This document shows positions 10,105-33,915 of a DNA stretch of 64,000 nt, in pieces. Each line of letters starts with the position of its first letter. The stretch's first letter is position 1. The DNA is from a virus (lineage: Duplodnaviria; Heunggongvirae; Uroviricota; Caudoviricetes): the IMG/VR virus record IMGVR_UViG_3300025644_000002; one strand, given 5' to 3'. The translations under genes were made by a program, and so were the position numbers. The notes under the pieces are model-generated. The model did not search any database. It was not told the DNA's origin and was given only the letters and a program-made list of their open reading frames with translations.

Positions 10105-10113
10105 TGAGCCTCC

Positions 10114-10605: not shown

Positions 10606-10608
10606 TTA

Positions 10609-16600: not shown

Positions 16601-16668
16601 TTTATAGACTTTAGGATAGCCTGTTGGATATTTGAGTTCTGTTTGTTGTAATTTAATAAATCTGCCAT
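10609..16668 (-). CDS. rpoBC: Fused beta/beta-prime multisubunit-type RNA polymerase, 2019 aa (5 in-frame TGA)
   Basis: Track ORFs 16477..16668, 15607..16134, 13795..15591, 10702..13782 share one frame and are separated only by TGA (16477, 16171, 15607, 13795, 10702); motifs NQLRRKPG, RDVQPTHLG, GDKLSGRYGNK, RAPTLH, NADFDGD, TQLVMQTFHTGG. Confidence 0.9.
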
Positions 16669-17150: not shown

Positions 17151-17412
17151 GGACGGGGCCTGTGTACATTTAAATACTAAATTTATAACAAAAATAGATA
17201 TTGCAGTGAAAAAGAATGCATTTAATATGGTTTATACTATATTTTATACATTTCATAGCAATGTTCCAGAATTAAAAATTATACATTTAGGACTTACCCC
17301 CTCCAGTATGATAACAGAAAATGATTTACTAGAAGTTCTTAGTAAGTATTGTGTATCTCTTGAAGAGGACGCAGACGCTTTATTAAGGCAATATAATCTT
17401 TTTAACAAATGA
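17080..17412 (+). CDS. Hypothetical protein translationally coupled to RT (candidate retron partner)
   Basis: ATGA overlap with RT start; ends in TGA. Confidence 0.6.
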   Translation: MKTTKQLKIQMMEKISPHLPNLTKDGACVHLNTKFITKIDIAVKKNAFNMVYTIFYTFHSNVPELKIIHLGLTPSSMITENDLLEVLSKYCVSLEEDADALLRQYNLFNK

Positions 17413-18299
17413 CAATTTACGAATTAATAGAAACACCAAAAACTGAAATAGAACAATTAGTAACTACTAAAATAAAGCAGTATAGAAGGTTCCCGATTAC
17501 AAAAAAGTCTGGAAAATTAAGGTGGCTTAATGAGCCGTCTGAGGCTTTAAAACAAGTTCAAACAAAGTTTTTAAATAATTTCTTATATAAATTTAAGACC
17601 CACCCGATAGCGGTAGGGTTTAGACGTAATATCAGCGTAAAAGAAGGTGCTAAACGACATTTTGGAAATAAGACTTTATTAAATATAGATTTAAGAGGTT
17701 TTTTCGATTCTGTAACAGCTAGCATGGTTTTACCTGAAATGATTAAGAGGCTTCATAGTTATAATAACCAACACACCCTTGAATGGGATGAAGCAGACGC
17801 AAGACTACTTACGTCTTTAATTACGCTAAATGGGGCATTACCGCAAGGATCTCCTACGAGTCCGGCTATGGCTAATTTAGTATGTTACAAAATGGATATA
17901 GATTTACAAGACTTTGCAAAACAAAATAAACTAATAGTTACTAGATACGCTGACGATATTAGTTTTAGTCATCTCTCCAAACGCTATCCGCTTTTGGATC
18001 ATATAATAGAAATTACCAAAATGGTACAAAAATATCATTTTAAACTAAATTACAAAAAGACTAGAATTATGAGGCCGCATAGACGGATGTCAGTAACTGG
18101 AATCGTAATAAACGACAAATACGGTATTCCAAAATATAAACGAAAAATATTTAGAGCTATTTTACATCAAAAACGAAACGTCGACATAACAGAAAGGGAA
18201 TACCAGCAATTAAGAGGTTATGCCGAATGGATTAGATTTTTAAATCCTGAACAAGGGCAAAAATTTATAGATGAAATAGCTAAAATGAATGTAGTATGA
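17409..18299 (+). CDS. Retron-type reverse transcriptase, 296 aa
   Basis: IDLRGFFDSV, LPQGSPTSP, RYADDI, region-X-like EGAKRH and region-Y VTG motif; no maturase or nuclease extension. Confidence 0.92.
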   Translation: MTIYELIETPKTEIEQLVTTKIKQYRRFPITKKSGKLRWLNEPSEALKQVQTKFLNNFLYKFKTHPIAVGFRRNISVKEGAKRHFGNKTLLNIDLRGFFDSVTASMVLPEMIKRLHSYNNQHTLEWDEADARLLTSLITLNGALPQGSPTSPAMANLVCYKMDIDLQDFAKQNKLIVTRYADDISFSHLSKRYPLLDHIIEITKMVQKYHFKLNYKKTRIMRPHRRMSVTGIVINDKYGIPKYKRKIFRAILHQKRNVDITEREYQQLRGYAEWIRFLNPEQGQKFIDEIAKMNVV

Positions 18300-18312
18300 G
18301 GCACTAAAAGAA

Positions 18313-18447
18313 ATGGACGTCAAGCTAGGCAAAACAATTGGACTGATGCTAATAATAGCTTTTGCAAAAATTGCAATCCTATTAGCAGAAACCAAAGTTA
18401 TTGATTTGACAACCGAAGAACCTAGCGACAACTCAAGTGACAGTTAA
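18313..18447 (+). CDS. Small single-TM protein, 44 aa
   Basis: MDVKLGKTIGLMLIIAFAKIAILLAETKVID... Confidence 0.5.
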   Translation: MDVKLGKTIGLMLIIAFAKIAILLAETKVIDLTTEEPSDNSSDS

Positions 18448-18699: not shown

Positions 18700-19404
18700 A
18701 TGCAGTTGCGTGCGTTTACAGAGAATAGCAAAACAATCCTTTCAGTTGATTTTAACAGAGATTTCACATGTGAACAGAAATGTGAATACTGTTATGTCGA
18801 AAATATGGAAAGAATTTATTCTGCTTATCTCAATAAAATCACGAGAAACGCACAATGGGCAACTGAAAACCCACAAGGGTTCGCCCAGCAACTGAACACT
18901 GAATACACAAAACTGACAAAAAGCAAAGCTAAATCTTATAAAAGATTAGGAAAAATGCCCGTAAGATTATACGGATCAGGAGATTTTAAACCAAAACATT
19001 TGGAATTCATTCAAAATTTAGATTTTAAATTTTTTATCATATCCAAAAATTTAACAAAACCTGAATATTATACTTATATAAGTCAGCTCTTAAAAACACA
19101 AAACGTTACAAAAATTCTATTAAGTTTTGATAATGCAAATCTTCAAAACTACATAAAATTAGGAAAATTATTTGGAAAAGATAGAATAGGCTTTTGCTAT
19201 ACAGGAATGGCGGATGAATTTAACGAAGTAACCGAACCGTTCAATGTCTTTTTCAATATATCCAAAAAACAAAAAGAAAGAGCGAAATCCAGATTAATTA
19301 AAGAACAATGCCCATGTGATAGTGGGGTTTTAGCGCATAAAGAAAGTTGCTCTTATTGTTCAAAATGCTGGAGATCGTCAATAACCAATATACGCAATGG
19401 ATAA
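18700..19404 (+). CDS. Fe-S/radical-SAM-like (gp88-like) protein
   Basis: CEQKCEYC (CxxxCxxC), VRLYGSGDF, C-terminal CPC...SCSYCSKC. Confidence 0.55.
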   Translation: MQLRAFTENSKTILSVDFNRDFTCEQKCEYCYVENMERIYSAYLNKITRNAQWATENPQGFAQQLNTEYTKLTKSKAKSYKRLGKMPVRLYGSGDFKPKHLEFIQNLDFKFFIISKNLTKPEYYTYISQLLKTQNVTKILLSFDNANLQNYIKLGKLFGKDRIGFCYTGMADEFNEVTEPFNVFFNISKKQKERAKSRLIKEQCPCDSGVLAHKESCSYCSKCWRSSITNIRNG

Positions 19405-19594
19405 AGAAATAATTAGTGATTTAAATGAAGCGTATGAAAGCGTAGCGATTGAATTTTCAAATTTTCGCAATGCTCACCAATTATATGCCAAAACATGGCA
19501 AGTTAGATATGCCAAAATGGCTCGAAGTAGTTTATTAAAATTAAAAAGAATAATTAAGAAATATAGAGTCCTTTCGTTAGAAGAGGCCAAATAG
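19397..19594 (+). CDS. Histone H1-like (Hc1-family) small protein
   Basis: ARSSLLKLKRIIKKYRVLSLEEAK resembles the ARKASLEIEKAMKEFRKASLE-type C-terminus. Confidence 0.5.
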   Translation: MDKEIISDLNEAYESVAIEFSNFRNAHQLYAKTWQVRYAKMARSSLLKLKRIIKKYRVLSLEEAK

Positions 19595-19602
19595 CTAATT
19601 CT

Positions 19603-19825
19603 TCCTCACAACTCTTAGCTGTATTTATATCAACGATCCTCGTAGTATAAATGTCGTGTCTGCTTCGGACACGGAAAAAACTAATAATACCCCAAACTAA
19701 CAAATCCCCGAGCTAAAACTGTTTAATCCAGAGGGTTAAACACTTATGACCACGGAGATTTACTTCAAGTTCCCTTATTAGACTAACGAAGGAATCAGAA
19801 TGGGAACTAGTAAGAGTTGTGGGGA
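19603..19825 (+). ncRNA. Retron msr-msd RNA (unit 1)
   Basis: 15-bp a2/a1 inverted repeat TCCTCACAACTCTTA (19603-17)/TAAGAGTTGTGGGGA (19811-25); branching G19618 in TTAGC context opposite G19810; two msr hairpins and msd hairpins. Confidence 0.85.
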
Positions 19826-19869
19826 CTCTATATACAAAATTTCAAAAGTGTGTTAGGTAGGGATTTTTT

Positions 19870-20180
19870 CCTTATCTGCTTTCTTAGTTGAAAGTCTATA
19901 CAAAATAGACGGCGTGGCTGTTTCGGCTACGTAGTAGGTTAACAAAAACCAAACACAACGGACCTTCGGGACCTCGAGAATGCTTTTCGATACGCCAGAA
20001 CAGTCTCCACCGTATTCCACATTTTGTGCGTTAACAACTTGGAAGTTTTTAACCCCCAAAAATGATGGAATGACTACGGAGAACCGTTTTGGCCACGAAA
20101 ATCATTCTCTCGGATCTCAGGAACGTCGTCCCGAAGATTTTATAACAGTAAAATCATCGGTACGTGTGAGAAATCGCAAA
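19870..20180 (+). ncRNA. Second msr-like unit (putative retron RNA unit 2; 3' end uncertain)
   Basis: TCTTAGTTG (G19887), hairpin GTCTAT/ATAGAC, then CGTGGC-TGTTTCG-GCTACG paralleling unit-1 CGTGTC-TGCTTCG-GACACG. Confidence 0.55.
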
Positions 20181-20240
20181 AAAAACGCACTTGCTTGCAG
20201 CGTTGTACAAGGATGTTACGTCCTTGCAGAAAAATAACCC

Positions 20241-20468
20241 GATTCGAACTTAAATGGAAAGAAAGTAAACAAAATGAAAACGCCCAAAAAGAAAAGTGAT
20301 ACATGAAACAACGGAGCGACCACGGGTAAAACCGGGTAGCGAACGGCCCTGAGAAAGGTCCGCTCCCTACCAGCGTTTTACCACAGGTCCCCCGTGTTTC
20401 AAGTACATTTTCTTTTTTCTGGGATTTCCATTTTTCGGTTTACTATCCTTTCCAGACTAATTCGAATC
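20241..20468. repeat. Long imperfect inverted repeat (~70-bp stem) with structured apex
   Basis: Colinear pairings GATTCGAA/TTCGAATC, TGGAAAG/CTTTCCA, AGTAAAC/GTTTACT, AAAAAGAAAA/TTTTCTTTTT, TGAAACA/TGTTTCA. Confidence 0.8.
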
Positions 20469-20962
20469 AAGCCCGACGGCGGCGCCTCCGGAAGAGTACT
20501 GCAGCAGCAGCTGACGCGTACGCCGACACCGGATCCGGATCTCAAATTGGACACGTGTTCGAAAAGGTTCCTCCCACCTGCCGCCCGGCCCAGTCCGCCA
20601 GGGTACCTGGTAAAGAAGACGCCGTAGAAAATGATGGCCGTTAACTAAGGAAGATGCTGACAACTGGTAGGCCTGCTACTCGCCGCGTCGTCATCATCCA
20701 GATCTACGTGATCATACCGACCGGTCAACAGCTGGCGACCGCGACCGTCATCGGCGATCGCTCCGTCGACAGAAGAACCACATGGTGGTGAATTCATCCA
20801 GCCGGCCCACTGGCCAACAAGGCCCCCGGGGCCCGGATGAGCTCGCGTGCCGAGACGTCCACGATTTCGAAGCCTACCTCAGATCGAGCTGATGCCGTTT
20901 AGGCCGCACAGCCTTCAGAGCGCTTCAGGAAATCCCGTCCCCAAAATGGTATACTAGTATAC
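20461..20962. other. GC-rich non-coding island densely packed with restriction-site palindromes
   Basis: 33 six-bp palindromes (28 distinct) counted by hand, plus SfiI, AsiSI and PflMI sites. Confidence 0.85.
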
Positions 20963-21059
20963 TAGATTTGCCCGCCGCTCCGGCCAAAATTCTAGTATAA
21001 TCTGGGAAAAGGTTATTAAAAATATCGGAATACTCCGAGTGTGCAAGCTCAAGTTAAGA

Positions 21060-21094
21060 AAAAGGGTCCGATTTTCGGATCGGTCCTTTTTTTT
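21060..21094 (+). terminator. Rho-independent terminator closing the RT/ncRNA region
   Basis: AAAAGG..CCGA/TCGG..CCTTTT stem followed by a T8 run. Confidence 0.65.
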
Positions 21095-21104
21095 ATCTTA
21101 AAAA

Positions 21105-21120
21105 TTGTTTATATTTAATA
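21105..21120 (+). promoter_or_regulatory. Putative late promoter for glycosyltransferase cluster
   Basis: TTGTTTATATTTAATA followed by AGGA RBS. Confidence 0.5.
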
Positions 21121-21143
21121 AAGGACATAACCAATAATTATAA

Positions 21144-23483
21144 ATGAAACCTAAATTATTTATCTGGAGTGATTTTTTAGTACCGACGGGGTTCGGAATA
21201 GTAGCTGAAAACTTATTTAAAGATTTACACAATTATTATGAAGTATCTATACTAGGTATAAACTACTTTGGAAATACTAAATACGATACTTCTAAATATT
21301 TCGTATACCCTGTAACTAAAGAAGATCCCCTGGGCGGCCAGAAACTGTGTGCCCTTGCACAAGCAGAAAAGCCTGACGTAATATTCTTATTTCAAGATAT
21401 CTTCCATATTTCAGAAATCATTCCCGAATTAAAAAAAGTATTACCAAATACTAAGATAGTATCTTATTTCCCTATAGACGGTACACCTCCTAGCGTGGGA
21501 TGGCAGAAAATATTTGAGCATTCCTCAGCAGTAGTAGCTTACACAGATTGGGCAATTGAAATTTTAAAAGATACTTACGAGATCAAAATACCTATACACA
21601 AATTATACCATGGTGTAAACGAAACTACTTTTTATCCACTACCTTACGATAAAATCCAAGAAATAAGAAAAGACTATAAATGGGCAAATAAGTTTGCTGT
21701 TTGTAATGTTAATAGATTTCAACCACGGAAGTTTATACCCGGAACTGCACGAGCCTTCAGTATGTTTGCAAAAGGGTACAAAGTTTGTAAATGTGGAAAT
21801 CATATGCCTATTAATCGTAAAAAATGCGATTTAAATATGTGTCCTGAAAGTGATATTGTAGAAGTAGTTAAAAGGAATAGACGGGACGTTTATTTGTATT
21901 TACATATGATGTCAGCAGAAATGACTATGGGGCCAGGAGCCGCAAACTTATTACAGAATCACTTATTAAATGCTGGATTTGTAGATAGCGACACTGATGG
22001 GGACGATACTATACTAGGAGTAAATGCTAGGAATATATACAGCGGTGAAGTACCTTCTTCAGAAATTAACAAAATTTATAATGCCTCAAATATTAATATA
22101 TCTTCTACAATAGGGGAAGGAAAACTAAACGAAGGCACCTTAATTTTATGTAGAGATGGGTATAAACGAATAGAGCATGTTACCCCTGAAGATGAAGTAA
22201 TAAATGACGAGGGTAATTGGTCGAAAGTAAAGAAAACATTAGGAACTCCTTTTGATGGAAAAATATATTCCATAACTATGGATGTGTTTTCAAAACCAAT
22301 TCTTTGTTCTCACGATCATCCTTTTTTATTAAAAGATAAAAGTTATAAGCGTGCGGAACTATTGAACGTCGGAGACATAGTAGCTTTACGACGTCCTAAA
22401 TGGAAAAATAAAATTCCAACACAAATAGACTTAGCAGATATGGGACTTCCACACCCTAACTATGAAATAACAGATACCCAAATAAATAGTAAACAACGAA
22501 GAAGTAGTTTGCAAAGGTTCATACCAATAAATGCGGAGATTTTAAAGTTTTTTGGAATTTTCTTAGGATGTGGGCATGTAACAGATAGAGGTATAATGTT
22601 TAATTTTAAACATAGAAAAGCAGAATTATTTGAGTATGTTGATTATATATTTAATAAATATTTTAATGTAGAAGGTTCATATGATGGTACATATTCTGAT
22701 CAAGCTGGCTATGTTAGAATAGCAGCAAAACCTTTATTAAAATTATTTAGACATCTATTTGGAGAAAAAGCATCAGAAAGAACTATTCCTACATATTTTT
22801 TAGCATTAGATAAAGAATTAAGGGGAGAGTTACTAAATGGTATAATGTCTGATGTAATTCACGGACAAAATACTTTATCATATGAAGTTAAGTCTGAAGA
22901 GTTTGCATACTTGTTAAGAGACTTATATTTGAGTACAGGGCTATTAAGCTTTATTAGGGAAGAGAATTACAAATACATCATAACGTTAGTGTTTGACCAA
23001 ACTTCTCATTCTAATATAGAGATGGATAAAGAGTTTGTGTATTTACCTATTGAGAGTATAAGTTCTTCAGATGAATTTTCAAATAGTCCTAAATTTTTAG
23101 GCTATGATTTAGAAGTACCTAATGGAGAATCATATACCTGCGCTCAAGTAACTGTCCATAATTGTGGTTTATCATTAATTGAAGCGGCAGCAACAGGTAC
23201 TCCAAGTATAGCCCCAAAAAATAGCGCTATTCCTGAAATGTTAGGAGACACGGGGCATATAGTACCTAATTTAGCAATATTTAATATGTCTATGGATAAT
23301 GGGCATTTACGCCCAGTGGTAGACCCTTTTGAAATGATGAAAGCTTTAGATATTGAATACAAAAAATGGAAAGAATCCGACAAAGAAAAGGATATTAATC
23401 TAGAGTGTATTAAGAATGTTGAAACTAAATTCAGATGGGAAGATAAAAGAGAAGCTTTACTCAAAATTTTAAAAGAAGTTTAG
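21144..23483 (+). CDS. GT-B (GT4-like) glycosyltransferase interrupted by an intein
   Basis: WSDFLVPTGFG N-terminus, NVNRFQPRK, STIGEG-[intein]-CGLSLIEAAATGTP. Confidence 0.85.
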   Translation: MKPKLFIWSDFLVPTGFGIVAENLFKDLHNYYEVSILGINYFGNTKYDTSKYFVYPVTKEDPLGGQKLCALAQAEKPDVIFLFQDIFHISEIIPELKKVLPNTKIVSYFPIDGTPPSVGWQKIFEHSSAVVAYTDWAIEILKDTYEIKIPIHKLYHGVNETTFYPLPYDKIQEIRKDYKWANKFAVCNVNRFQPRKFIPGTARAFSMFAKGYKVCKCGNHMPINRKKCDLNMCPESDIVEVVKRNRRDVYLYLHMMSAEMTMGPGAANLLQNHLLNAGFVDSDTDGDDTILGVNARNIYSGEVPSSEINKIYNASNINISSTIGEGKLNEGTLILCRDGYKRIEHVTPEDEVINDEGNWSKVKKTLGTPFDGKIYSITMDVFSKPILCSHDHPFLLKDKSYKRAELLNVGDIVALRRPKWKNKIPTQIDLADMGLPHPNYEITDTQINSKQRRSSLQRFIPINAEILKFFGIFLGCGHVTDRGIMFNFKHRKAELFEYVDYIFNKYFNVEGSYDGTYSDQAGYVRIAAKPLLKLFRHLFGEKASERTIPTYFLALDKELRGELLNGIMSDVIHGQNTLSYEVKSEEFAYLLRDLYLSTGLLSFIREENYKYIITLVFDQTSHSNIEMDKEFVYLPIESISSSDEFSNSPKFLGYDLEVPNGESYTCAQVTVHNCGLSLIEAAATGTPSIAPKNSAIPEMLGDTGHIVPNLAIFNMSMDNGHLRPVVDPFEMMKALDIEYKKWKESDKEKDINLECIKNVETKFRWEDKREALLKILKEV
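22122..23162 (+). mobile_element. Intein (347 aa) with degenerate LAGLIDADG domain and Lys at position 1
   Basis: KLNEGTLI block A, CSHDHPF block B, GIFLGCG block C, YDLEV...VTVHN/C blocks F-G. Confidence 0.85.
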
Positions 23484-24326
23484 ATGAATATTTGTCTCTA
23501 TAAGACAACAAATTTGGCACAATGTCCAGATCATTTAGCTTCTGGTATAAATAAGTATTCAGAGCATCGAGCAGTAGTTAGCCAAAATACAAGTATAGGG
23601 GACTTTGTACACTTTAATAATAATTTTGTATTTACTAGAACTCCGTCGTTAATGCACTATCACAGTGAACCTTGGAGAGTGCTTTTAAATTATAAAGGCT
23701 TTAAAGTAGTTAACCCCCAATACCATGCCACTTTACCAGAATATCAAGATTGTATGCCTAGTAAATGGATGTTTATGGATTTAGAAGATAAACAGCTTTA
23801 TAGTCAAAAAATAATAGATTCTAGAATAAAAGTAGGGTATTCACCTAGCACTTTAGAAGGAGTAGATACTTACGATAAAGGAGTTAAAGTTACAACGGCT
23901 GTACTTAAAAAACTTAAAGAAAAATTTCCCGAAGACTTTGATTTTGATATTATATATAACGTATCCTTTGAGGAATGTATGTCTAGAAAAGCTAATTGCA
24001 ATATTATTATTGACGAATGTGTCACTGATAGCTTTCACATGTCTAGTTTTGAGGGATTAGGTTTAGGAAAATTAGTAATATGTTCTATGTCGTCCCAGAT
24101 TTCTAATAATTTATTAAAGATCTCCGGGGCGTCAACTAATCCTATACGAAATGTCTATATAAAGGACTTAGAAAACTTTTTAGAAAATCTTGTAGTAACT
24201 AACCAATTACAAGAAGTTTTAATAGAAGGTGCAAAAAATAGAACTTGGGCAGAGCAGTATTGGGGTCCTCAGGGCATAGTTAATTACTGGATCGATATTT
24301 ATACCACAATTTACTCACAATATTAA
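23484..24326 (+). CDS. Glycosyltransferase-like protein
   Basis: YSPS...KG, EECMSRKANCNIIIDE, SSFEGLGLGKLVI (GT-B C-terminal domain). Confidence 0.65.
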   Translation: MNICLYKTTNLAQCPDHLASGINKYSEHRAVVSQNTSIGDFVHFNNNFVFTRTPSLMHYHSEPWRVLLNYKGFKVVNPQYHATLPEYQDCMPSKWMFMDLEDKQLYSQKIIDSRIKVGYSPSTLEGVDTYDKGVKVTTAVLKKLKEKFPEDFDFDIIYNVSFEECMSRKANCNIIIDECVTDSFHMSSFEGLGLGKLVICSMSSQISNNLLKISGASTNPIRNVYIKDLENFLENLVVTNQLQEVLIEGAKNRTWAEQYWGPQGIVNYWIDIYTTIYSQY

Positions 24327-24327
24327 A

Positions 24328-26199
24328 ATGAATAAAATAAGAATACATATGATTGGTGCTCCGCATCAAAATGTTATTATAAATGATCCACATATAACTA
24401 CAGATCCTTACGTTACTAAAATGTATCTTCTATGTAAAAAGTTTACTGAAGAGGGTCACGAGGTAATATATTATGGAGTAGAGGGGAATGAAATGATTTG
24501 TACTAAAAATATAGAATACATTTCAAAAGAGATGTGGAAAACACATTGTGAAAATAGAGATCCAAATACTTCCTTTGAAGACCATTTATATAAACCCGAA
24601 TCAAAGTTATATAAACATGCGGAAGCTACACTAATTGAAGAAGTTAAAGAAAATTTTAAAGATATTTTAACTGACGTTATTTTAGTGGGATATGGAAATT
24701 GGTCTCCAAAATTAGGAGAATTAAAAGCTATAGGAGCTACCATAGAATATGGTATAGGCTATTTATCTACTTTTGCCGACTACTTATGTTTTGAAAGTAA
24801 CGCCTGGATGAATACTTACTATGGAGTTAATGGGTATATAGACACCAACAAATGGTTTCATTCAGTTATTCCTGGGTATACTGATCCTAAAAATTTTGAA
24901 TTTAAAAAGAAGAAAGAAGATTATTTTCTTTTCTTAGGAAGGTTAGGAGACGCTAAAGGGATGAATGTAGCGGTGCAATTGGCTAAACATTTTAAAACTA
25001 CACTATATGTGGCCGGCAATGGGGATTCTTCTAAACTAAAAGATAAGGAAGGTTTAATTAAATATGTAGGCGTTGCTGCTGGAGATAGAAAAAAAGAATT
25101 ATTAGCTAACGCAACCCTTACTTTTTGTTTAAGTAAATATGTAGAGCCGTTTGGCAACGTGCACATAGAAAGCCTAATGTCTGGGACGCCTGTAGTAACC
25201 ACGGATTGGGGAGTTTATACAGAAACAGTTCCTCATGGAGTTGTAGGCTTTAGAGGAAGAACCTGGGAAGATTTTACTTATGCTATAAGAAATATTAAAG
25301 ATATAGACCCACAAGATTGTAGAGATTGGGCTATTAAACATTTTAGTTTAGAATCTGTATACCCGAAATTTATTGCTTATTTTGAAAAATGTATTTCTCA
25401 TAAATACCTACAGAATGGGTGGTATTTTGATCGATTTTTGGAAAGTGGGCATAAAGATTTTTATACCTATAAACCTTATATAACTAATTATCATAATTAT
25501 TTTAGCGATAAAGCATTAGAGAAATCGCCTGTAGAATTATGCAAATTAAAGAATATAAAAAAGAATCAAGATGTTTGGGTTTTAGGTTCCGGAGCTTCTG
25601 TAGAATATATAGATAAAGAATTTTTTAATAATAAAACTACTATCTGTGTTAACCAATCAGCTTATGCTATAGATAATCCAGAATATATAGTAATAAAGGA
25701 TCCTAATCCGGAAGTCATAGATTATGCAGAAAAAACTAACGCAACTTTATTATTCTCTAATTTTAGAGAAGGCCATTCTAGACATCCACTTAATCAAATA
25801 GATTTAGAAAACTCAATTAGGTATTTCCATAATGAAAATAATATAGAAATCCCAGAAGAGTTTGACTTTAACTTAGATAAACTAATAGTTAGCCAGTCTA
25901 CTATCACTACAGCTATACACTTGGCGGCTTATATGGGTGCTAAAAATATTATTTTAGTGGGCCATGATTGTGGTACCTTAGACGAAGTTACAGAAATAAA
26001 AGAATATAATACTTCCAAAAGGGGTGAGTCAGTAAGAACTAATGAAAAGTATCTTAATTGGTTAAAAACAATAGAAGCTCATACTCTTAATTTAAAAGAA
26101 AAATTAATAAAACATTATGGTGTAAATATTACATCTTTGAATCCATTCATAAACTTTAACCTAGAAGGACATACTTTTAAGACTAGTGAAAAATATTAA
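24328..26199 (+). CDS. GT4 glycosyltransferase fused to Maf/DUF115-like domain
   Basis: FLGRLGDAKG, EPFGNVHIESLMSGTPVVTTD; C-terminal VLGSGAS...TAIHLAAYMGAKNIILVGHD. Confidence 0.8.
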   Translation: MNKIRIHMIGAPHQNVIINDPHITTDPYVTKMYLLCKKFTEEGHEVIYYGVEGNEMICTKNIEYISKEMWKTHCENRDPNTSFEDHLYKPESKLYKHAEATLIEEVKENFKDILTDVILVGYGNWSPKLGELKAIGATIEYGIGYLSTFADYLCFESNAWMNTYYGVNGYIDTNKWFHSVIPGYTDPKNFEFKKKKEDYFLFLGRLGDAKGMNVAVQLAKHFKTTLYVAGNGDSSKLKDKEGLIKYVGVAAGDRKKELLANATLTFCLSKYVEPFGNVHIESLMSGTPVVTTDWGVYTETVPHGVVGFRGRTWEDFTYAIRNIKDIDPQDCRDWAIKHFSLESVYPKFIAYFEKCISHKYLQNGWYFDRFLESGHKDFYTYKPYITNYHNYFSDKALEKSPVELCKLKNIKKNQDVWVLGSGASVEYIDKEFFNNKTTICVNQSAYAIDNPEYIVIKDPNPEVIDYAEKTNATLLFSNFREGHSRHPLNQIDLENSIRYFHNENNIEIPEEFDFNLDKLIVSQSTITTAIHLAAYMGAKNIILVGHDCGTLDEVTEIKEYNTSKRGESVRTNEKYLNWLKTIEAHTLNLKEKLIKHYGVNITSLNPFINFNLEGHTFKTSEKY

Positions 26200-26896
26200 A
26201 AAATTATCAGGTATGCAGGCAGCTTCAGACATATACATATTATGTTCAGGGCCTTCCGCTGATTACCTACAATCTCAATTCCTTAATGATAAAATTGTCA
26301 TAAGTGTAAACGCTTCATACAAGGCTTACGGAACTATAGACATATGCGATTATATAGTTATGCAAGATTATAATTCAGAACTAATTGAGGAAGCCGGGTC
26401 TGGTTTATACGACTGGCCAAAATTAATAATTCCTGAGCATGCGGGCGGGATGAAGACTGCAAAATCTTTTGTTAAATTAGAAGAGCAGCTATTTCCCGAA
26501 TTTAAGGAAAAAAGGTACAACAGGCTATTTTATTATAAACACCAACATAATGTAGGAGTAAATAATAAAAAGCTAGATTGGACTAATAAGGAATATCTAA
26601 CTATAACTAAATGTAGTACTCATACAGCAATGCATTTAGCCGCTCACTTGGGAGCTCATAATATTATTTTAGTGGGCCATGATTTGGGCAGTATAGATGG
26701 AAAATTGAATTATAAAGACTATAAACGTTATGGTAGCAAAGACTCTTATGTAAAATGGATGAAGAACAACGAAAACATAGGGCTAGACACTGTTAAACGT
26801 ATAAGGGGTGCCTATGGTGCATATATTAATATAATGAGCTTAAATCCCTTCCTATCGCCTAATTTAGATGGGCACTCTTATAAATTTCTAGGATAA
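26186..26896 (+). CDS. Maf/DUF115 (MptE-like) glycosyltransferase-fold protein
   Basis: ILCSGPS, VISVN, TAMHLAAHLGAHNIILVGHD; paralogous to the upstream C-terminal domain. Confidence 0.75.
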   Translation: MKNIKKLSGMQAASDIYILCSGPSADYLQSQFLNDKIVISVNASYKAYGTIDICDYIVMQDYNSELIEEAGSGLYDWPKLIIPEHAGGMKTAKSFVKLEEQLFPEFKEKRYNRLFYYKHQHNVGVNNKKLDWTNKEYLTITKCSTHTAMHLAAHLGAHNIILVGHDLGSIDGKLNYKDYKRYGSKDSYVKWMKNNENIGLDTVKRIRGAYGAYINIMSLNPFLSPNLDGHSYKFLG

Positions 26897-26908
26897 AAAA
26901 AAGACCCT

Positions 26909-27109
26909 CTATTCGAGGGCCTCATCTATTACTGAATCAAAATATCAAATTGTGATAATAGGCTTACCAAATTTATCGTAAGTAAACTCAGTGAATCTAT
27001 CTTCCACTAAGTAACGAGGGTTATTTATAATATCCTCGTATTCAGCCTTTTCAGACTCATAGTTAAGGCGAAAAGTGCCTACTTTTTTCTTTCCAAAAAA
27101 ACTAACCAT
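26909..27109 (-). CDS. Small hypothetical protein, 66 aa (one TGA at 26945)
   Basis: MVSFFGKK...FGKPIITI-W-YFD; TAATG-type coupling. Confidence 0.5.
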
Positions 27110-27300
27110 TAGCCACCCCATCTTTTACGATCATTGGCTGCTAAATCTTCTATCCCCATATCTTGGGGGTCATGGTCTAAATGTTCCCAACCATCTTCTG
27201 CTAATTTTTCTAAATCAGTAGTTTCCTCATAAGGGATTCTTTTTATTTCATTAGTTTTTATGTTTCTAAAAACTTCGTATGTTCCATATTTTTCCATCAT
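27109..27300 (-). CDS. Small hypothetical protein
   Basis: GGAG RBS, 63 aa. Confidence 0.55.
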   Translation of the reverse strand: MMEKYGTYEVFRNIKTNEIKRIPYEETTDLEKLAEDGWEHLDHDPQDMGIEDLAANDRKRWGG

Positions 27301-27307
27301 ATTCTCC

Positions 27308-29173
27308 TTAAGGCGTTCCTCTGGTTTGTCCTTTAGTTTTTTCCGGGCCAGTTTTTACCTTATTACTATTACGCTGTCCAGGCGTTTTTTGATTGGGCTC
27401 TGTTTGAGTTCCCTGGGCGCCAATTTCAGAAACCTCTGCTGCTTGCATATAATAATTTAAACGCTCCATAACTAAGTTTGCAGTTACTGGTGCAGTTTTA
27501 CTAATTTCCTGTATAGCCTGAGTTTGTTCCTCTGGCCCAAAGAACATTAGGGTTTTAGCATATTTTTCTATAACTTCATATGGGTCAATTGGGGAGCCTG
27601 CATTTTCTTCCATAAGTTCTTTTTCAAAAACTTCAGCTCTTAATCTTAATAGCTCGTCTTCAGCAGCTTTTTGCGCTCTAGCTTGATACCTAGTCATTAT
27701 CACAGTAGCTTGGCCTTGAGCCTCGGCTTCTCTAATAGCTTTTTTAATTCCTTGATCAATCATTGCGCTATTTTCTTTAGTATTAGATATCTCTTCTTCG
27801 ACAGCGGAATAACCAAAGTCTTGAAGAAGTGTAGACGCAGATAAAGCTCCTAATTCATTTAATTGTAATGATAATTGTTTAGATTGAGAGTCATCACTCA
27901 TCTTAAATTTCTTCAATTGAATTTCGATTGAAGGGTATTTTAATAAGGTAACTATCTTATCGATAACAAAATAATTAATGAAATCTAACATATCTTCTCT
28001 ATAAGTTAGGAATCCATTTTCTACAATACGTAATGAAATAGAAGAACCAGTCCACGAAGTTCCACCTTTAATAAATTCTACAGGAACTCCAATACTGTTA
28101 ATAACGTTTTCTTCTAAAAATTTCATTTCAGGAGTTAATAATAGAGATCTAGCATTTCCACCAAGCTCTTGATATTGAACTGGAATAGGAAAAATACCTA
28201 CATGGTTAGGGTCGCTTCTCCATTTTTTAACTTGCTCTTCAATATTAGCGCGCCATTTCCCTAAGTTCATCATAGAATAAGGATCCATAGCGCCTGTATT
28301 AGCTGGCGATATTAATTTTTTAGGTACAATATGGTCATTAGCTATCGCTTCATTACCACGTTTTAAAGTTTGTTGGTAATAAATTAGTCTAAGAGCGGCT
28401 AATATACGAGGTTTGCCCCATCCCATATCTTCCTCTGCTAAAGTAGGAGCTTTAAAATGATATAAATTATTGTTATCTAACATAATTTTTTTCTTTTTCT
28501 TTAAAGCTTCTAAGAAGACTGCAGGTATATCTTCTAGTATGGCCATGTTCCCTACTAAAATTCCTTGCTTAATCTTATTAGGCATTGCATAATAATAACG
28601 AGCATTACCTGATATAGGGTTATAGTCTATATCAATATTTTCAGGAGACCATCTAACGAATTTTAAACTACTAATTGTAGTTAAAGGTTCATCCTTAATA
28701 TTCATTGGAGTTTCGTGCCCACACTTTTCACAGATAGCCTGGAATACAAATTTCTTTAATTTTACCCCACGCATAGAAGCTATTTCTGCCTCTGTACCAC
28801 AAACATTACAAGCTAAAAATCTCTTTTGCTTTAGAAAGGCAGATACAAAACAGTTACCATAAGTATAGTAATCTAAACCAATTTCAATTAATAAATTCTT
28901 TAAGCGTATTTCTTTTTTAAACGCTTTAGCATATAGCTCTTTTATATCTGGTTCAATAGAGGTGTCATATATAATATCCGTTATAGGATACTCAGTCATC
29001 TTACTAATAACATTTCGTAAAATTTCATTAGTATAATAAAAAGTTTTACAGAACTTAAATAACGTTTTTATATTTCTTGGTAAAAAATTCTGTGATAAAT
29101 CAAAAAATGGATTAGGGTACTTCTTACCTTTATATTCATCTATGTCGTTTTCTGTTAAGTAACGTACTGGCAT
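27308..29173 (-). CDS. Putative portal protein with Zn-ribbon insertion
   Basis: 621 aa, YPNPFFD N-terminus, MTEYPIT, helical clip-like core, CNVC/CEKC; late-block context. Confidence 0.55.
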   Translation of the reverse strand: MPVRYLTENDIDEYKGKKYPNPFFDLSQNFLPRNIKTLFKFCKTFYYTNEILRNVISKMTEYPITDIIYDTSIEPDIKELYAKAFKKEIRLKNLLIEIGLDYYTYGNCFVSAFLKQKRFLACNVCGTEAEIASMRGVKLKKFVFQAICEKCGHETPMNIKDEPLTTISSLKFVRWSPENIDIDYNPISGNARYYYAMPNKIKQGILVGNMAILEDIPAVFLEALKKKKKIMLDNNNLYHFKAPTLAEEDMGWGKPRILAALRLIYYQQTLKRGNEAIANDHIVPKKLISPANTGAMDPYSMMNLGKWRANIEEQVKKWRSDPNHVGIFPIPVQYQELGGNARSLLLTPEMKFLEENVINSIGVPVEFIKGGTSWTGSSISLRIVENGFLTYREDMLDFINYFVIDKIVTLLKYPSIEIQLKKFKMSDDSQSKQLSLQLNELGALSASTLLQDFGYSAVEEEISNTKENSAMIDQGIKKAIREAEAQGQATVIMTRYQARAQKAAEDELLRLRAEVFEKELMEENAGSPIDPYEVIEKYAKTLMFFGPEEQTQAIQEISKTAPVTANLVMERLNYYMQAAEVSEIGAQGTQTEPNQKTPGQRNSNKVKTGPEKTKGQTRGTP

Positions 29174-29685
29174 TATTTAATGTACTCCATGATTTTTAAA
29201 TATTTTGCAGCCTGTATACCCAACCTATCCTCTTCAAGAGGAAAAGGCCCGCTGCCTGCTTTATCTTTTACTACGTCAAGCATAGAATCGTCTATATTAG
29301 CGAATGGGTGGAAAAAGGTATATCCATTATCTATAAACATAAATTTAATATATTGAGTCACTTCAAAACTAAGTTCTAAATTAGGATGCATATTTTGTAT
29401 GATATCCAAAGCCTTCCAAATAAATTCAGGAAGGCATCCTTCTGTTTTACCTACATCCGGGTTAATACCATTAAGTACTAAACATACGTTCTCAAAGACA
29501 TCCATGTCTTCGTAAGCCTGTCTAGTTTCCCTTAAAAGCTTTATTACTAACACTTGCTGTCTTTCTAAATTATTTAATTTAGGAAAAAGCTTATGTAAAG
29601 TTTCCGGCTCTATTACGCCTGGTATTTTTAGTAAGTCTTCTATTAACATTTTATTTTTTGAGTGGTTTTCTCCAGATGCTTTCAC
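29173..29685 (-). CDS. Hypothetical protein
   Basis: 170 aa, coupled to portal-like gene. Confidence 0.55.
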   Translation of the reverse strand: MKASGENHSKNKMLIEDLLKIPGVIEPETLHKLFPKLNNLERQQVLVIKLLRETRQAYEDMDVFENVCLVLNGINPDVGKTEGCLPEFIWKALDIIQNMHPNLELSFEVTQYIKFMFIDNGYTFFHPFANIDDSMLDVVKDKAGSGPFPLEEDRLGIQAAKYLKIMEYIK

Positions 29686-29929
29686 GCCATTTAGGTTTTA
29701 CTATATCTTTAAATAAACCACCCTTTGGGTTATTTAATGCAGCTTTATTTTTATATAAATAAGAATCTAATCTGCCACCTTGTAACATTCGAAGCTTAAT
29801 CTTTAAATTATAATCTTTAGGTTGCTTGGTAATATGTAATATTTTATTTTTATTTTTAGCAAAAGGTTTTGCCCAATTGGGAACCTTCATTACTGCGTAT
29901 TTTTCAAATACATATTCTGCTTTATCCAT
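29651..29929 (-). CDS. Basic hypothetical protein
   Basis: 92 aa. Confidence 0.5.
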   Translation of the reverse strand: MDKAEYVFEKYAVMKVPNWAKPFAKNKNKILHITKQPKDYNLKIKLRMLQGGRLDSYLYKNKAALNNPKGGLFKDIVKPKWRESIWRKPLKK

Positions 29930-29930
29930 T

Positions 29931-30911
29931 TTAATTCTCCTCTAACTGAGCTTCTACGTAGCATCCTCGTGCTACAGCAGTAAGTGGTTCGTCTACTAAT
30001 TTTATCTCACTAATCTCTAGTGGAAATTGTTTTTGTTGAAATTGGTCCTTAAATACATCGATAAACCCATTAACCATTGAAGACCCTCCACCAATAATTA
30101 TGGGAACTGCGTCTGGGAAATTAGGCATACTTGTAGATGCAAATTGATTTGCTATATTAGATAGTAAGTACCGTACCATAGCTTCATAATAAGTTTTTAC
30201 AGCTTGTTGCTCTCTAGTGCGCTCTACGTCGGAAGTAGGGGCTATAGTGTAGTCTCCAGCTTCTTTAATATACTGAGCTTTAGCTGAGGAAATGCCACAA
30301 TCTCTTGCTACATTTTCATCGATCCAATCTCCCGATTTAGCTACGCTAAACTCTAAGGTAGACATCCCCGCATACATAATAGCTAAATTACACATACCAG
30401 CCCCCATCGAAATAGAAATACCAGTTAACCCCGCAGTTTGTAATCCAGCTAATCCTAAAGCTATTGCTTCATTTATAGCTCTAGCTTCATATCCTAAAGA
30501 ATCAATTATTTGTTTTAAAACATCTTCATGATAGTTAACTTCTTGGACTTTATCTATAGGTTTTCCAGGAACACAATATACTATGCGTTCTTTTTCTTTT
30601 TCTGCTTTCCCTACTAACCCTAATATAATTTCCCTTAATACTGGAAAAGCATCCTGTTCTGTAGGGTTTAATAACCCTTGAGACATAGGCCTACTTAATT
30701 CTTTATTACCAAAAACTTGGGCATATTCGTACGCTTTCTTACCTATAATATGCAATCTATTATTAATTTCAACGTATGGTACTTTTAATAAATTTAGCTG
30801 TCTAGTAGTAGTAGTAGTTTTATCAATAGTTAAAAAAGCATTACGTTGTAAACGCATACCGTTTTCATCTACAGCTACAAAATTACCAGTTCCACAATCC
30901 AATCCTTTCAT
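29931..30911 (-). CDS. Actin-like ATPase (MreB/FtsA/ParM fold)
   Basis: GLDCGTG phosphate-1, INEAIA, SMGAGMCN phosphate-2, IIIGGGSS adenosine motif. Confidence 0.82.
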   Translation of the reverse strand: MKGLDCGTGNFVAVDENGMRLQRNAFLTIDKTTTTTRQLNLLKVPYVEINNRLHIIGKKAYEYAQVFGNKELSRPMSQGLLNPTEQDAFPVLREIILGLVGKAEKEKERIVYCVPGKPIDKVQEVNYHEDVLKQIIDSLGYEARAINEAIALGLAGLQTAGLTGISISMGAGMCNLAIMYAGMSTLEFSVAKSGDWIDENVARDCGISSAKAQYIKEAGDYTIAPTSDVERTREQQAVKTYYEAMVRYLLSNIANQFASTSMPNFPDAVPIIIGGGSSMVNGFIDVFKDQFQQKQFPLEISEIKLVDEPLTAVARGCYVEAQLEEN

Positions 30912-31219
30912 TAGTTTAAGCTCCCTGCATTATTAATTATTTCATCATCTATACTTTTTGCTAAGTTTGAAGCCCCTACTTCATAATCAAACATAATTTT
31001 ACCATCAACCTCTTCTATAGGTACTTCAAATTGTTCAGCAGGTATATACTCTGCTGGTTTTGATTTAAGCTTTCCCCGTATAGGCCCTTCGTCTGTTAAA
31101 CCATATTGTATATATTTATCATTCTTAATATTAATTTTTTTATTTTTAATAACAAAAGCTTGATATAGAGAAACGGCCGCATGTATGAATACGGCTCCGG
31201 CTAAAATAATTATTTCCAT
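30911..31219 (-). CDS. Membrane-anchored hypothetical protein
   Basis: N-terminal hydrophobic helix. Confidence 0.55.
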   Translation of the reverse strand: MEIIILAGAVFIHAAVSLYQAFVIKNKKINIKNDKYIQYGLTDEGPIRGKLKSKPAEYIPAEQFEVPIEEVDGKIMFDYEVGASNLAKSIDDEIINNAGSLN

Positions 31220-32289
31220 TATAATAAATTGATTACGTCTTTTTTAATAGGGGTAGGTAATGATTCTAAAATATCTAAAGCTTCTTCACCTCGTAATTCG
31301 GAAACAACCCCATTACCAACAACAGCAGCTAAATCCATATCTGGGACATTAGCTAATTTTTCTCTCGTAACTGTCACTCCGTCTATTACTCTGGAGGCTT
31401 CCTTAGTAAAGGCCATAGTAGTAACCATCGGGTCTTCTACTCCATGCCCATACCTTCCTAGTAATCCTACCTTCTCATCAATCTTATATAAAGCTTCGGC
31501 AGTCTTAATGGCTCCAAGGTCATCAGCTTGTTTTATTAAATCATCATATAATGAGTGGCTAGCTGTGTCAGATTCGCCAATAAATCCTTTCCTAACTTGT
31601 ATTAAATTAAAAAAGTCCTCATTAAATTCATCTCGTAATTCTGAATATTTTTGAATAGCAGTACCACTAAGTTCAATATCTATATCTTGGGCAGCTTCCA
31701 TAGTATTATTTATAAATTCTATTTTCTTAACTGTGTCCATTTTTTGATGATGTGTATCAAAATAAGATGCTGCTTTTTTTACAGCTAACTCGGTATGTAA
31801 GGGATATTTTTTTTCTTCAGCCCACGCATACTTTTCAATTGATTCAACTACTTCGCTAGTTTTTTCTACAAAAGCTTTTTCATTAATAGTACGAATATCT
31901 AAAGTGTTTGGAACAAATTTATCAGAATGATAATTTTTTAAACCCTCAGGAACTTGTATACCATAATTAAAAGCGGCACATGTCAAGTTAGTAGCTGCAA
32001 TTTTTACGACTTCTTCTGGTAACGAGTTTTTCTCCTCATCTAAGAAAGCCATATTAATTTCTACAAGTTCTGGGGTAGTAGTAGCAAATTTTTGCAATTT
32101 CCCATGACTGGGATGCCACAAAATTAAAGCTACATTGGATTCGGATAACGCTCCAAGTTCTTCAAGTGATTGTACATGAGCTGTCTTAACAGAGTCAGAT
32201 AATTCCTCTACTACTTCAGCTAATTTTTGTAAGTCTTCGTTAAGAATAAAATCTGTTACGTCTAAGCTTCTGCTCATTAATTTTTTCAT
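31219..32289 (-). CDS. Hypothetical (possibly head-assembly) protein
   Basis: 356-aa acidic ORF, coupled genes. Confidence 0.6.
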   Translation of the reverse strand: MKKLMSRSLDVTDFILNEDLQKLAEVVEELSDSVKTAHVQSLEELGALSESNVALILWHPSHGKLQKFATTTPELVEINMAFLDEEKNSLPEEVVKIAATNLTCAAFNYGIQVPEGLKNYHSDKFVPNTLDIRTINEKAFVEKTSEVVESIEKYAWAEEKKYPLHTELAVKKAASYFDTHHQKMDTVKKIEFINNTMEAAQDIDIELSGTAIQKYSELRDEFNEDFFNLIQVRKGFIGESDTASHSLYDDLIKQADDLGAIKTAEALYKIDEKVGLLGRYGHGVEDPMVTTMAFTKEASRVIDGVTVTREKLANVPDMDLAAVVGNGVVSELRGEEALDILESLPTPIKKDVINLL

Positions 32290-32301
32290 TTTTAGTGTCT
32301 C

Positions 32302-32874
32302 CTAAGAAAAAATAAAGTTTTTTATAAAGTTGATTAGGATATATCCAGGGCAAGCTGGCTTGCCAAAAGAATCATGTCCATAAATTTCTGTTTCATCTAA
32401 GTCTAGTTTTTCATTTTTTAAAAGAGTATTTAATAGTTGTTTTAAACTATGCAATTGCTCTTTAGTAGGGTGAGAGTCCATTCCTGAATGATCTACACCG
32501 TTAAAATCTCCCATAACTAGAATACCTATAGAAGAAGTATTTTGGCCTTTACAGTGCCAAACAATACTACTTAAGTTATTACAAAGCAACACTGAGCCGT
32601 CTTTCTCTATAACATAATGATAACAAATGTGAGGGGCCCCATTAGGTGAAATATGATTATTTTCTCCTGGAGTAATATGATAGTTATTAACAGACTCTGC
32701 TGTAGCACCAGACACTAACGCTTGATGTATAATTATTTTATTAATCCTATTAAAAGCTCTATTAGCCCATACCCTAGTTTCATGCCAGGGCAGGACACTA
32801 GTCATATCTTTTATTTCTAATGGAATTTCTTCCTCTTTTTTGAATTTAGTAAATATATTGCAAATATTCCACAT
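32302..32874 (-). CDS. N-acetylmuramoyl-L-alanine amidase (endolysin)
   Basis: IIIHQ, YHYVIEKDG, WHCKGQNTSSIGI, YGH...ACPG (Amidase_2). Confidence 0.88.
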   Translation of the reverse strand: MWNICNIFTKFKKEEEIPLEIKDMTSVLPWHETRVWANRAFNRINKIIIHQALVSGATAESVNNYHITPGENNHISPNGAPHICYHYVIEKDGSVLLCNNLSSIVWHCKGQNTSSIGILVMGDFNGVDHSGMDSHPTKEQLHSLKQLLNTLLKNEKLDLDETEIYGHDSFGKPACPGYILINFIKNFIFS

Positions 32875-32908
32875 GTTTTTTTTATTTTGGTTTAATTTAA
32901 TTTAAAAT

Positions 32909-33005
32909 TGGCAGGCACGGAAGGAGTCGAACCCTCATAACCGGCTTGGACCCCGGCATACGGTTTTGAAGACCGTTCCCATAAACCAAATGGGAATACG
33001 CACCC
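32909..33005 (-). tRNA. UGA-decoding tRNA (anticodon UCA), Trp-like acceptor/anticodon arms, long variable arm
   Basis: GGGTGCG/CGTGCCT-G-CCA acceptor, ACGGT-CTTCAAA-ACCGT anticodon arm, 23-nt variable region, GAGGG-TTCGACT-CCTTC T arm. Confidence 0.9.
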
Positions 33006-33011
33006 ATACTT

Positions 33012-33242
33012 TTATAAGCTTTTACAACTCATACTCATAGGTATATAACTGGGAAATAGTTTATCTTCATGTTTCTTCGCTAACTTTGAGAGTTCTCTTT
33101 TAATTACAAGCTCCCCCTCTTTTCTACTTTCTACAGTCTCATCTAAAATATAAGTAGTTTTCGCAATATGATCATTTATTTGTATTGAAAAATTATTTGA
33201 TCCCGCAATTGGGTCTATATGCCCTTCGAGAAGAGTACTCAT
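33012..33242 (-). CDS. Small hypothetical protein
   Basis: 76 aa, TAATG coupling with holin. Confidence 0.5.
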   Translation of the reverse strand: MSTLLEGHIDPIAGSNNFSIQINDHIAKTTYILDETVESRKEGELVIKRELSKLAKKHEDKLFPSYIPMSMSCKSL

Positions 33243-33649
33243 TATTTAGTGTTAACTCCTTTCCATTTTTCCCAGCTTCTCATTCCACCAATACCTAGTA
33301 AACTAGTTACTAAAGGAAATAATACTGCCATATCTAATACAGGTAAAATAGCTACAGAGCCGAACAGTGCAAGTATAGCTCCCAAAATAGGAGCAAATAC
33401 ATATTGATACCCTAAGCCAAAGACACACACCCAGCCTATGAATGGGCGCCAACCTGCTACAAATATAGATTTATGAGAAGCTTCAGCCAAATTAATTTTC
33501 ATTTGACCAGCATCCAACCACTTTTGCATATCAGCTTTTTCATCAGCACTTAATATGTATTCTCCTACAATATCAGCACCCTTGCCTAAAATTTCGCCAA
33601 CCCCTGACTTGCCTAAAACAGATCCTAAAGCTTTGCTTAAAACAGACAT
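33242..33649 (-). CDS. Holin (3TM-type family)
   Basis: IFVAGWRPFIGWVC...LLGIGGMRSWEK. Confidence 0.8.
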   Translation of the reverse strand: MSVLSKALGSVLGKSGVGEILGKGADIVGEYILSADEKADMQKWLDAGQMKINLAEASHKSIFVAGWRPFIGWVCVFGLGYQYVFAPILGAILALFGSVAILPVLDMAVLFPLVTSLLGIGGMRSWEKWKGVNTK

Positions 33650-33840
33650 TATTTATCCTCCGTACTTTCCTTAAGTAATTTATCCAATAACTCTATTTGA
33701 CCTCTAGTATAGTCGTGAGCCTCTTTTTCTAAAACAATTTGAGTTTGTATATTAGTTATTTGCTCATTTAAATTATCAACAAGATGTTCTCGTTTTAAAT
33801 TTTCCTCAATTAACTTCTCTCTTTTATCTTTTAAATCCAT
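33649..33840 (-). CDS. Small coiled-coil protein
   Basis: 63 aa, first gene after the motif at 33876-33890. Confidence 0.5.
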   Translation of the reverse strand: MDLKDKREKLIEENLKREHLVDNLNEQITNIQTQIVLEKEAHDYTRGQIELLDKLLKESTEDK

Positions 33841-33875
33841 AATACTTTATTTTATTGGTTTGTATAATCTTTCTT

Positions 33876-33890
33876 TATTAAATATAACAA
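33876..33890 (-). promoter_or_regulatory. Putative late promoter for lysis/suppressor-tRNA/portal unit
   Basis: TTGTTATATTTAATA in an intergenic gap. Confidence 0.5.
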
Positions 33891-33915
33891 TTATTAAGGT
33901 AAATATCAACTAATA

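Follow-up and report, generated by a model that had tools for sequence, protein, structure and literature searches.

Phages that switch from the standard to an alternative genetic code were described by Borges et al. (bioRxiv 10.1101/2021.08.26.457843), whose work is the source of the model of a staged code switch. The recoded phages of that study include two clades recoded at TGA, Jade and Agate, and Jade phages carry a "code change module" beside the lysis cassette that consists of a tRNA, a tryptophanyl-tRNA synthetase (TrpRS), and release factor 1 (RF1). The same authors found that lysis genes are preferentially recoded. Block-wise dual coding was also identified in crAss-like phages (Mgcod, bioRxiv 10.1101/2022.06.29.495998), where code 15 was validated by metaproteomics (PMC9523058), and partial recoding was described in jumbo phages (PMC13037316). 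Here we analyzed a stretch of 64,000 nucleotides, hereafter the window, from the IMG/VR virus record IMGVR_UViG_3300025644_000002 (Caudoviricetes). The element in question is a suppressor tRNA with the anticodon UCA, tRNA(UCA), located between the holin and endolysin genes of a lysis/portal unit that lacks in-frame TGA codons.

This phage resembles those of Borges et al. in that TGA encodes tryptophan (Trp), the suppressor tRNA lies beside the lysis genes in a stretch that the standard code can also read, and the structural genes are heavily recoded. As in their phages, close standard-code relatives exist and the tRNA is found only in the recoded lineages. There are also clear differences. While the phages of Borges et al. 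came from the gut, this one is marine and has a genome of about 205 kb. Unlike the Jade module, the tRNA is accompanied by neither RF1 nor TrpRS and sits inside the cassette. The lysis genes, for which the same authors reported preferential recoding, have no TGA in this phage (0 TGA and 5 TGG codons in the holin gene, 0 and 4 in the endolysin gene) and a single one in the endolysin gene of a recoded relative. Moreover, the phage's own RNA polymerase is recoded. The likeness to the crAss-like phages consists in the arrangement of the genes in blocks of one code or the other, with the early and replication genes in the standard code and the late genes recoded. However, the lineage is another one, a third, code-neutral class of genes is visible, and the early genes demonstrably use TGA as a stop codon.

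The window corresponds, in reverse complement, to bases 39655-103654 of one virus contig of 205,518 bp, with a GC content of about 34-36% and an estimated completeness of 97% (CheckV). The source is a dual-coded marine phage, and the summed length of its long open frames rose from 63,221 to 86,765 residues once TGA was read as sense. Genes were called under code 4 (253 genes) and their TGA and TGG codons were counted one gene at a time. Only 51 of the 253 genes contained an internal TGA, and the genome could be divided into three classes of genes: those in which TGA is a stop (early), those in which it is absent (code-neutral), and those in which it encodes Trp (recoded). In the early block, nearly all of the 21 TGA codons either preceded the probable genuine start or stood 0-13 codons from the end of the code-4 frame. 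The codon is thus the real stop in 13-14 of the 122 early genes, including one with a tandem TGA-TGA, and one internal TGA is doubtful. The early genes of a recoded relative, G002, have TGA stops in the same pattern. The TGA-ending early genes (for example, those at -52564 to -52124 and at 156605-156919 of G002) are followed, 0-13 codons further on, by a TAA or TAG, and each phage has one tandem TGA-TGA. These second codons have the look of reserve stops that would catch late suppressor read-through. The 29 code-neutral genes contain no TGA, either as sense or as stop; the absence of TGA stops alone has a probability of about 0.03 at the rate of TGA stops in the early block. Some plus-strand genes are recoded too.

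Several comparisons show that the virion genes, the RNA polymerase, and a few other genes use TGA as a Trp codon: TGA sites align with Trp, TGG, or TGA in the orthologues and stand in contexts like those of Trp. When the TGA codons were aligned with the orthologues in G002, they faced Trp (33), TGA (30), Tyr (8), Leu (5), Phe (4), and Ser (2), and the TGG codons gave the same profile. Thus, 63 of 100 aligned TGA sites face Trp or TGA, and the remainder follow the substitution profile of Trp. In the RNA polymerase, standard-code relatives have TGG opposite 12 of 13 aligned TGA sites. The gene for the collagen-like tail fiber has no TGA at the Gly positions of its Gly-X-Y repeats, and all 15 of its TGA codons are found in contexts typical of Trp. 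Reading of TGA as Gly or Ser was considered and ruled out by the collagen-like Gly positions and the alignment profile. The base following TGA was also compared: sense TGA and TGG codons of the same genes differed only marginally (P = 0.04 and 0.03), and the direction was not the one that weak termination would predict.

The lysis/portal unit comprises 11 consecutive, tightly packed minus-strand genes (positions 27109-33840) with 2,194 codons, among which there are 23 TGG and no in-frame TGA. Its genes end in TAA (10) or TAG (1), and none in TGA. A preliminary description of the window had proposed that every Trp from the holin gene through a portal-like gene is encoded by TGG, that the first TGA appears at 26945 in the last tiny gene, that the suppressor tRNA lies within this unit, and that the flanking tail module and the RNA polymerase/PhoH block contain TGA. 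The counts bear out all these points (Table 1), as they do the statement that the lysis genes are not recoded here, and the proposed holin, endolysin, actin-like, and portal-like genes were recognized by Pfam, PHROG, or tblastn matches. The description spoke of many Trp codons in the unit; all of them are indeed TGG, but they number only 23. The unit was also presented as a special region. It is free of TGA, but most of the genome is as well, including the blocks 18700-26896 (29 TGG) and 59651-72023 (51 TGG), and since only 51 of the 253 genes carry an internal TGA, the unit is not unique.

The contrast between the unit (23 TGG, 0 TGA) and the neighboring tail block (35 TGG, 63 TGA) is highly significant (Fisher P = 2.6e-9). 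If base composition and Trp content alone explained the distribution of TGA, which the preliminary description had named as an outcome that would overturn it, the two blocks should differ in these properties. They are alike instead: the GC content at third codon positions is 0.226 in the unit and 0.204 in the tail block, the preference for A-ending codons at other NNR codons is 0.64-0.91 and 0.72-0.92, and Trp makes up 1.05% and 1.16% of the residues, respectively. Therefore, composition and Trp content do not account for the contrast. The actin-like gene, which stands between the lysis and the portal genes, is the best conserved of the unit (63-75% identity in relatives). The TGA at 26945-26947, just past the unit, is shared by the recoded relatives G002 and L003, and six standard-code relatives have TGG at this site.

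Table 1. Features of the window and of the adjoining parts of the contig. Positions are those of the window, continued beyond its two ends; TGA and TGG are numbers of in-frame codons.
Feature	Position	Strand	TGA	TGG	Assignment and remarks
Early class	-69000 to 9330	+	21	310	Block of ~78 kb, 122 genes
PhoH, 163-aa protein, and RNA polymerase operon	9382-16668	-	7	12	Recoded
PhoH	9382-10104	-	1	1	
Fused beta-beta' RNA polymerase	10609-16668	-	5	9	Beta and beta' subunits of a multisubunit RNA polymerase fused in one 2019-aa protein; G002 orthologue 2354 aa
Code-neutral class	18700-26896, 27109-33840 (unit), 59651-72023		0		29 genes; no TGA, sense or stop
Intrinsic terminator closing the unit	26901-26923	-			9-bp stem followed by a T run
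70-aa conserved protein	26909-27121	-	1		TGA is codon 59 (26945-26947), at an invariant Trp
63-aa protein, last TGA-free gene of the unit	27109-27300	-	0		Gene call
Portal protein	27308-29173	-	0	5	32% identity to the annotated portal of Salmonella phage Arash (tblastn E 3e-85); phrog_16240 9e-9
170-aa conserved protein	29173-29685	-	0		Gene call, relatives
92-aa protein	29651-29929	-	0	3	
Actin-like protein, Volactin family	29931-30911	-	0	1	PF25216 3e-70; MreB_Mbl 5e-8
102-aa protein	30911-31219	-	0		Gene call
356-aa protein	31219-32289	-	0	2	Conserved in relatives
Endolysin (N-acetylmuramoyl-L-alanine amidase)	32302-32874	-	0	4	Amidase_2 PF01510 2e-19; endolysin/amidase PHROGs
Suppressor tRNA(UCA), 97 nt	32909-33005	-			ARAGORN, Rfam; 34 bases before the endolysin gene
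76-aa protein, function not assigned	33012-33242	-	0		Stop 6 bases ahead of the tRNA; 62% identity to G002 counterpart
Holin	33242-33649	-	0	5	PF11351 GTA_holin_3TM 3e-13; phrog_3427 (holin) 4e-23
63-aa protein, first gene of the unit	33649-33840	-	0	0	Coiled-coil look; no family match
Sigma-70-like promoter of the unit	33881-33909	-			TTGATA, 17 bases, TG-extended TATATT (promoter scan)
Tail and baseplate block	33916-59522	-	63	35	Recoded; collagen-like fiber, Baseplate_J protein, sigma-like gene
Sigma-like gene in the tail/baseplate operon	52162-52878	-	1	0	Sigma70_r3 7e-8
Recoded class	Head and tail blocks, 72024-79598, polymerase operon, few others				TGA is 37-64% of Trp codons

The suppressor tRNA carries G73 and a CCA end that is encoded in the gene; its acceptor stem has 7 bp, its D stem 6 bp, and its variable arm 23 nucleotides. 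Its acceptor, anticodon, and T arms are of the Trp type. When the variable arm was removed and the rest compared with the 28 tRNAs of the phage, the closest was the tRNA-Trp(CCA) of the phage itself (score 30; no other exceeded 16), and the anticodon arms of the two differ solely by C34U. Since its core is nearest to tRNA-Trp(CCA) and the anticodon arms differ at this position alone, tRNA(UCA) is a tRNA-Trp derivative with added structure and not a selenocysteine (Sec) or Ser tRNA. No other tRNA with the anticodon UCA was found in the genome. The opal suppressors derived from tRNA-Trp in code-4 bacteria share with it the Trp-type anticodon arm with C34U, G73, and a U72 opposite position 1. They differ from it in that tRNA(UCA) has the 23-nucleotide variable arm and the 6-bp D stem, features with which Rfam scores it as tRNA-Sec, and in that the copy in G002 has a non-canonical T loop. 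In tRNA-Sec, which decodes UGA as Sec, the hallmark is an axis of 13 bp formed by the acceptor and T stems (8/5 in bacteria). The identification as tRNA-Sec (RF01852) was rejected: the score of 48.5 bits is just over the cut-off of 47, the fold is 7/5, the core is of the Trp type, and there are more than 150 sense TGA codons at Trp positions. Neither release factors RF1 and RF2 (PF00472) nor TrpRS (PF00579) had a match in the genome, which is 97% complete.

Nine loci that share this gene order were identified in a search of viral contigs with the portal protein. Recoding was seen in two, L002, which lies on a contig of 210 kb (99% complete) that corresponds to G002, and the nearly identical L003. 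Essentially no in-frame TGA is present, even in the tail genes, in seven standard-code relatives, namely L001, L005-L009, and L028, a contig binned in a metagenome-assembled genome (MAG). In the portal tree, the standard-code label of the remaining locus, L004, was assigned by assumption. The suppressor tRNA was detected only in the recoded relatives, where it occupies the corresponding site immediately before the endolysin gene; the seven standard-code relatives lack it and have the same gene order. The copy in G002 was missed by ARAGORN, and the Rfam tRNA model matched only its positions 8-63. This copy (5912-6010 of L002, 76169-76260 of G002:C1) has a T loop of GGCGGTA instead of TTCGANT and a D loop of 4 nucleotides. 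An alignment of the two copies revealed compensatory changes in the stems, with three double changes in that of the anticodon and one in that of the acceptor, and long variable arms that are built differently. A pattern scan of the viral contigs for homologues of the tRNA returned those of G002 and L003, along with three chance matches that are not tRNAs. The portal tree did not resolve its base, and a single origin of the recoding is possible. In G002, the unit has 2 TGA and 25 TGG codons and the tail block 72 and 48 (Fisher P = 3e-7).

If the host itself used code 4 (or 25), the phage would merely follow its host. We regard this alternative, also raised by the preliminary description as one that would refute it, as extremely unlikely. 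The in-frame TGA codons themselves are the only observation in its favor. The early block, however, has 310 TGG codons and almost no internal TGA, 13-14 of its genes end in TGA, one of them with a tandem TGA-TGA, and the seven close relatives use the standard code throughout. In addition, TGA does not encode Gly, which speaks against code 25. The early genes that end in TGA and the standard-code relatives argue strongly, if indirectly, against a code-4 host, and the host probably uses the standard code. A scan of genome contigs with the portal profile identified only one phage-sized contig, a relative, binned as Bacteroidales, and one distant contig in a MAG of Anaerolineales, which is too weak a basis for naming a host.

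The preliminary description had pointed to a motif at 33876-33890 ahead of the unit. It is the -10 part of a longer element, a sigma-70-like promoter at 33909-33881. The position and layout of this promoter are kept in G002 and in the standard-code relative L001. Together with the terminator at 26923-26901, it delimits what is, by these signals, a well-bounded operon. The suppressor tRNA lies in an operon that reads the same under either code.

The window comes from a dual-coded phage with a genome of about 205 kb, in which the decoder of TGA is tRNA(UCA). We consider it probable, with some reserve, that its host uses the standard code and that the code is switched through the tRNA in the code-neutral operon. 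The tRNA would be transcribed as part of the lysis/portal operon and released by the tRNA-processing enzymes of the host. The genes of the unit would avoid TGA because they would be translated while the meaning of TGA is changing, when the suppressor is scarce and the RF2 of the host is active. As the tRNA accumulates, messages that contain TGA would become translatable. The switch follows the model of Borges et al. but departs from it locally in two respects: the tRNA lies within the lysis cassette, and TGA does not gate the lysis genes.

Several observations weigh against this reading. Promoters of the same type as that of the unit (TTGACn, about 17 bases, TATATT, often followed by TAA) precede the polymerase operon (16739), the tail operon (59559), and other operons, and they are also found at the orthologous sites of G002. 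One promoter type precedes TGA-free and TGA-rich operons, and the transcription class does not separate them. Since its type is shared with the polymerase and tail operons, the promoter of the unit gives no sign of earlier transcription. In four marine metatranscriptome runs, all from one study and selected using this stretch, the unit was found at an identity of at least 99%, but as contigs, which attest to its presence only, while the reading concerns timing. The endolysin gene of G002 has one TGA, at a Trp aligned with W36, so lysis cassettes are not bound to be free of TGA, even if the holin gene of G002 has no TGA. The reading further supposes that TrpRS would charge the structurally odd tRNA(UCA). 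Finally, the TGA load of orthologues differs widely. A glycosyltransferase of 1970 amino acids has 23 TGA and 9 TGG codons here and 0 and 32 in G002, and much of the pattern may be drift within tolerance.

The latter point leads to a serious rival of the switch model, which we hold to be somewhat unlikely. According to it, the distribution of TGA has no role in timing: once the suppressor had been acquired, TGG would drift to TGA under AT pressure wherever this is tolerated, genes that depend on efficient or accurate translation, or whose translation falls in any period of incomplete suppression, would keep TGG, and the position of the tRNA would be a historical accident of its insertion. The large differences between orthologues, such as those of the glycosyltransferase and of the polymerase (5 TGA and 9 TGG here, 1 and 17 in G002), are in agreement with this explanation. 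So are the absence of TGA in both phages from the probable major capsid gene, which is 80% identical between them, the TGA of the G002 endolysin gene, and the fact that the TGA positions common to both phages are found in tail and structural genes only. Nonetheless, drift alone does not readily explain that the unit is strongly depleted of TGA in both recoded lineages (Fisher P of about 3e-9 and 3e-7), that TGA is avoided in it as a stop too, and that the tRNA occupies the identical site in both. It also leaves aside that the same genes can be rich in TGA or free of it depending on their operon. The glycosyltransferase/MptE genes have no TGA here (0 TGA/10 TGG and 0/3, in block 18700-26896), while their orthologues in G002, located in or behind late operons, have 6/10 and 3/2. 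Because the same genes are TGA-free here and bear TGA in or behind the late operons of G002, the operon context weighs more than the gene product for the use of TGA, with a large drift within tolerance.

Of the staged switch put forward in the preliminary description, the tRNA in a TGA-free operon, the dual coding, and a host that does not use code 4 were upheld, but the unit being translated first and the positive feedback were not. In that proposal, the unit is translated first, its tRNA unlocks the RNA polymerase and the sigma factor, and these in turn transcribe more of the unit. The five in-frame TGA codons of the polymerase and the one of the sigma-like gene, both of which would need suppression, and the unit's own independence of suppression are compatible with such a circuit. 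The TGA codons on which it would depend are lineage-specific, however. In G002, the polymerase has its single TGA at another site, as does PhoH, and the sigma-like gene has none; its single TGA here aligns with Arg, not Trp. The standard-code relatives have TGG at the polymerase sites, and the only gene that matches Sigma70_r2 (about 95143-95958) is free of TGA. The promoter of the unit is sigma-70-like, is kept in relatives without the tRNA, and is of the same type as that of the polymerase itself. Moreover, the supply of tRNA needs transcription and processing, not translation of the neighboring genes. The idea of a feedback is weak because the TGA codons involved are recent and not conserved, one sigma factor is TGA-free, the promoters are alike, and the tRNA requires no translation. 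We regard the circuit as quite unlikely; nothing calls for or points to a positive feedback designed to run through the phage RNA polymerase.

An additional possibility, which we put forward tentatively and consider unlikely, is that the promoter shared by the tRNA and the holin gene starts the licence for translation of the virion genes and the lysis clock of the holin together, like an hourglass, and so fixes the time available for assembly. The code-neutral operons would then be a distinct transition class in recoded phages. On this reading, a positive feedback, if there is one, would more likely act via the host: RF2 autoregulates through a programmed frameshift at a UGA in prfB, and a UGA suppressor that competes there would lower RF2. 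If true, the hourglass would invert the published view that lysis is gated by TGA codons, a claim to which the unit is a counter-example in any case. With this analysis, a clade of marine phages of about 200 kb joins those known to combine dual coding with a suppressor tRNA of their own. The two recoded lineages, which have the tRNA, and the seven standard-code relatives, which lack it, share one gene order and form a matched set that is useful for studying how a change of code begins and then extends from one gene to the next. The division of the genes by TGA as stop, absent, or sense points to a simple, testable rule that could improve the annotation of such genomes.

Other genes of interest were found along the contig. 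A transfer-messenger RNA (tmRNA) with the tag GRPAVKLAA (6387-6758), a peptide deformylase (61023-61559), and a nucleotidyltransferase of the CCA-adding type with an HD domain (62372-63856), all on the plus strand, are located in TGA-free blocks. They look like translation support and may serve the code switch. A suppressor-type tRNA with the anticodon CUA, which reads TAG, is encoded on the minus strand of the contig (G000:C1:105393-105469), about 1.7-1.8 kb before position 1 of the window. It belongs to the main tRNA cluster, yet TAG is the stop of many genes. A reverse transcriptase gene occupies 17409-18425. The plus-strand glycosyltransferase-like gene at 21144-23483 has an intein (PF14890); its relatives align either over the first 326 residues only or over the full length, which suggests that the intein is present in some of them and absent in others.

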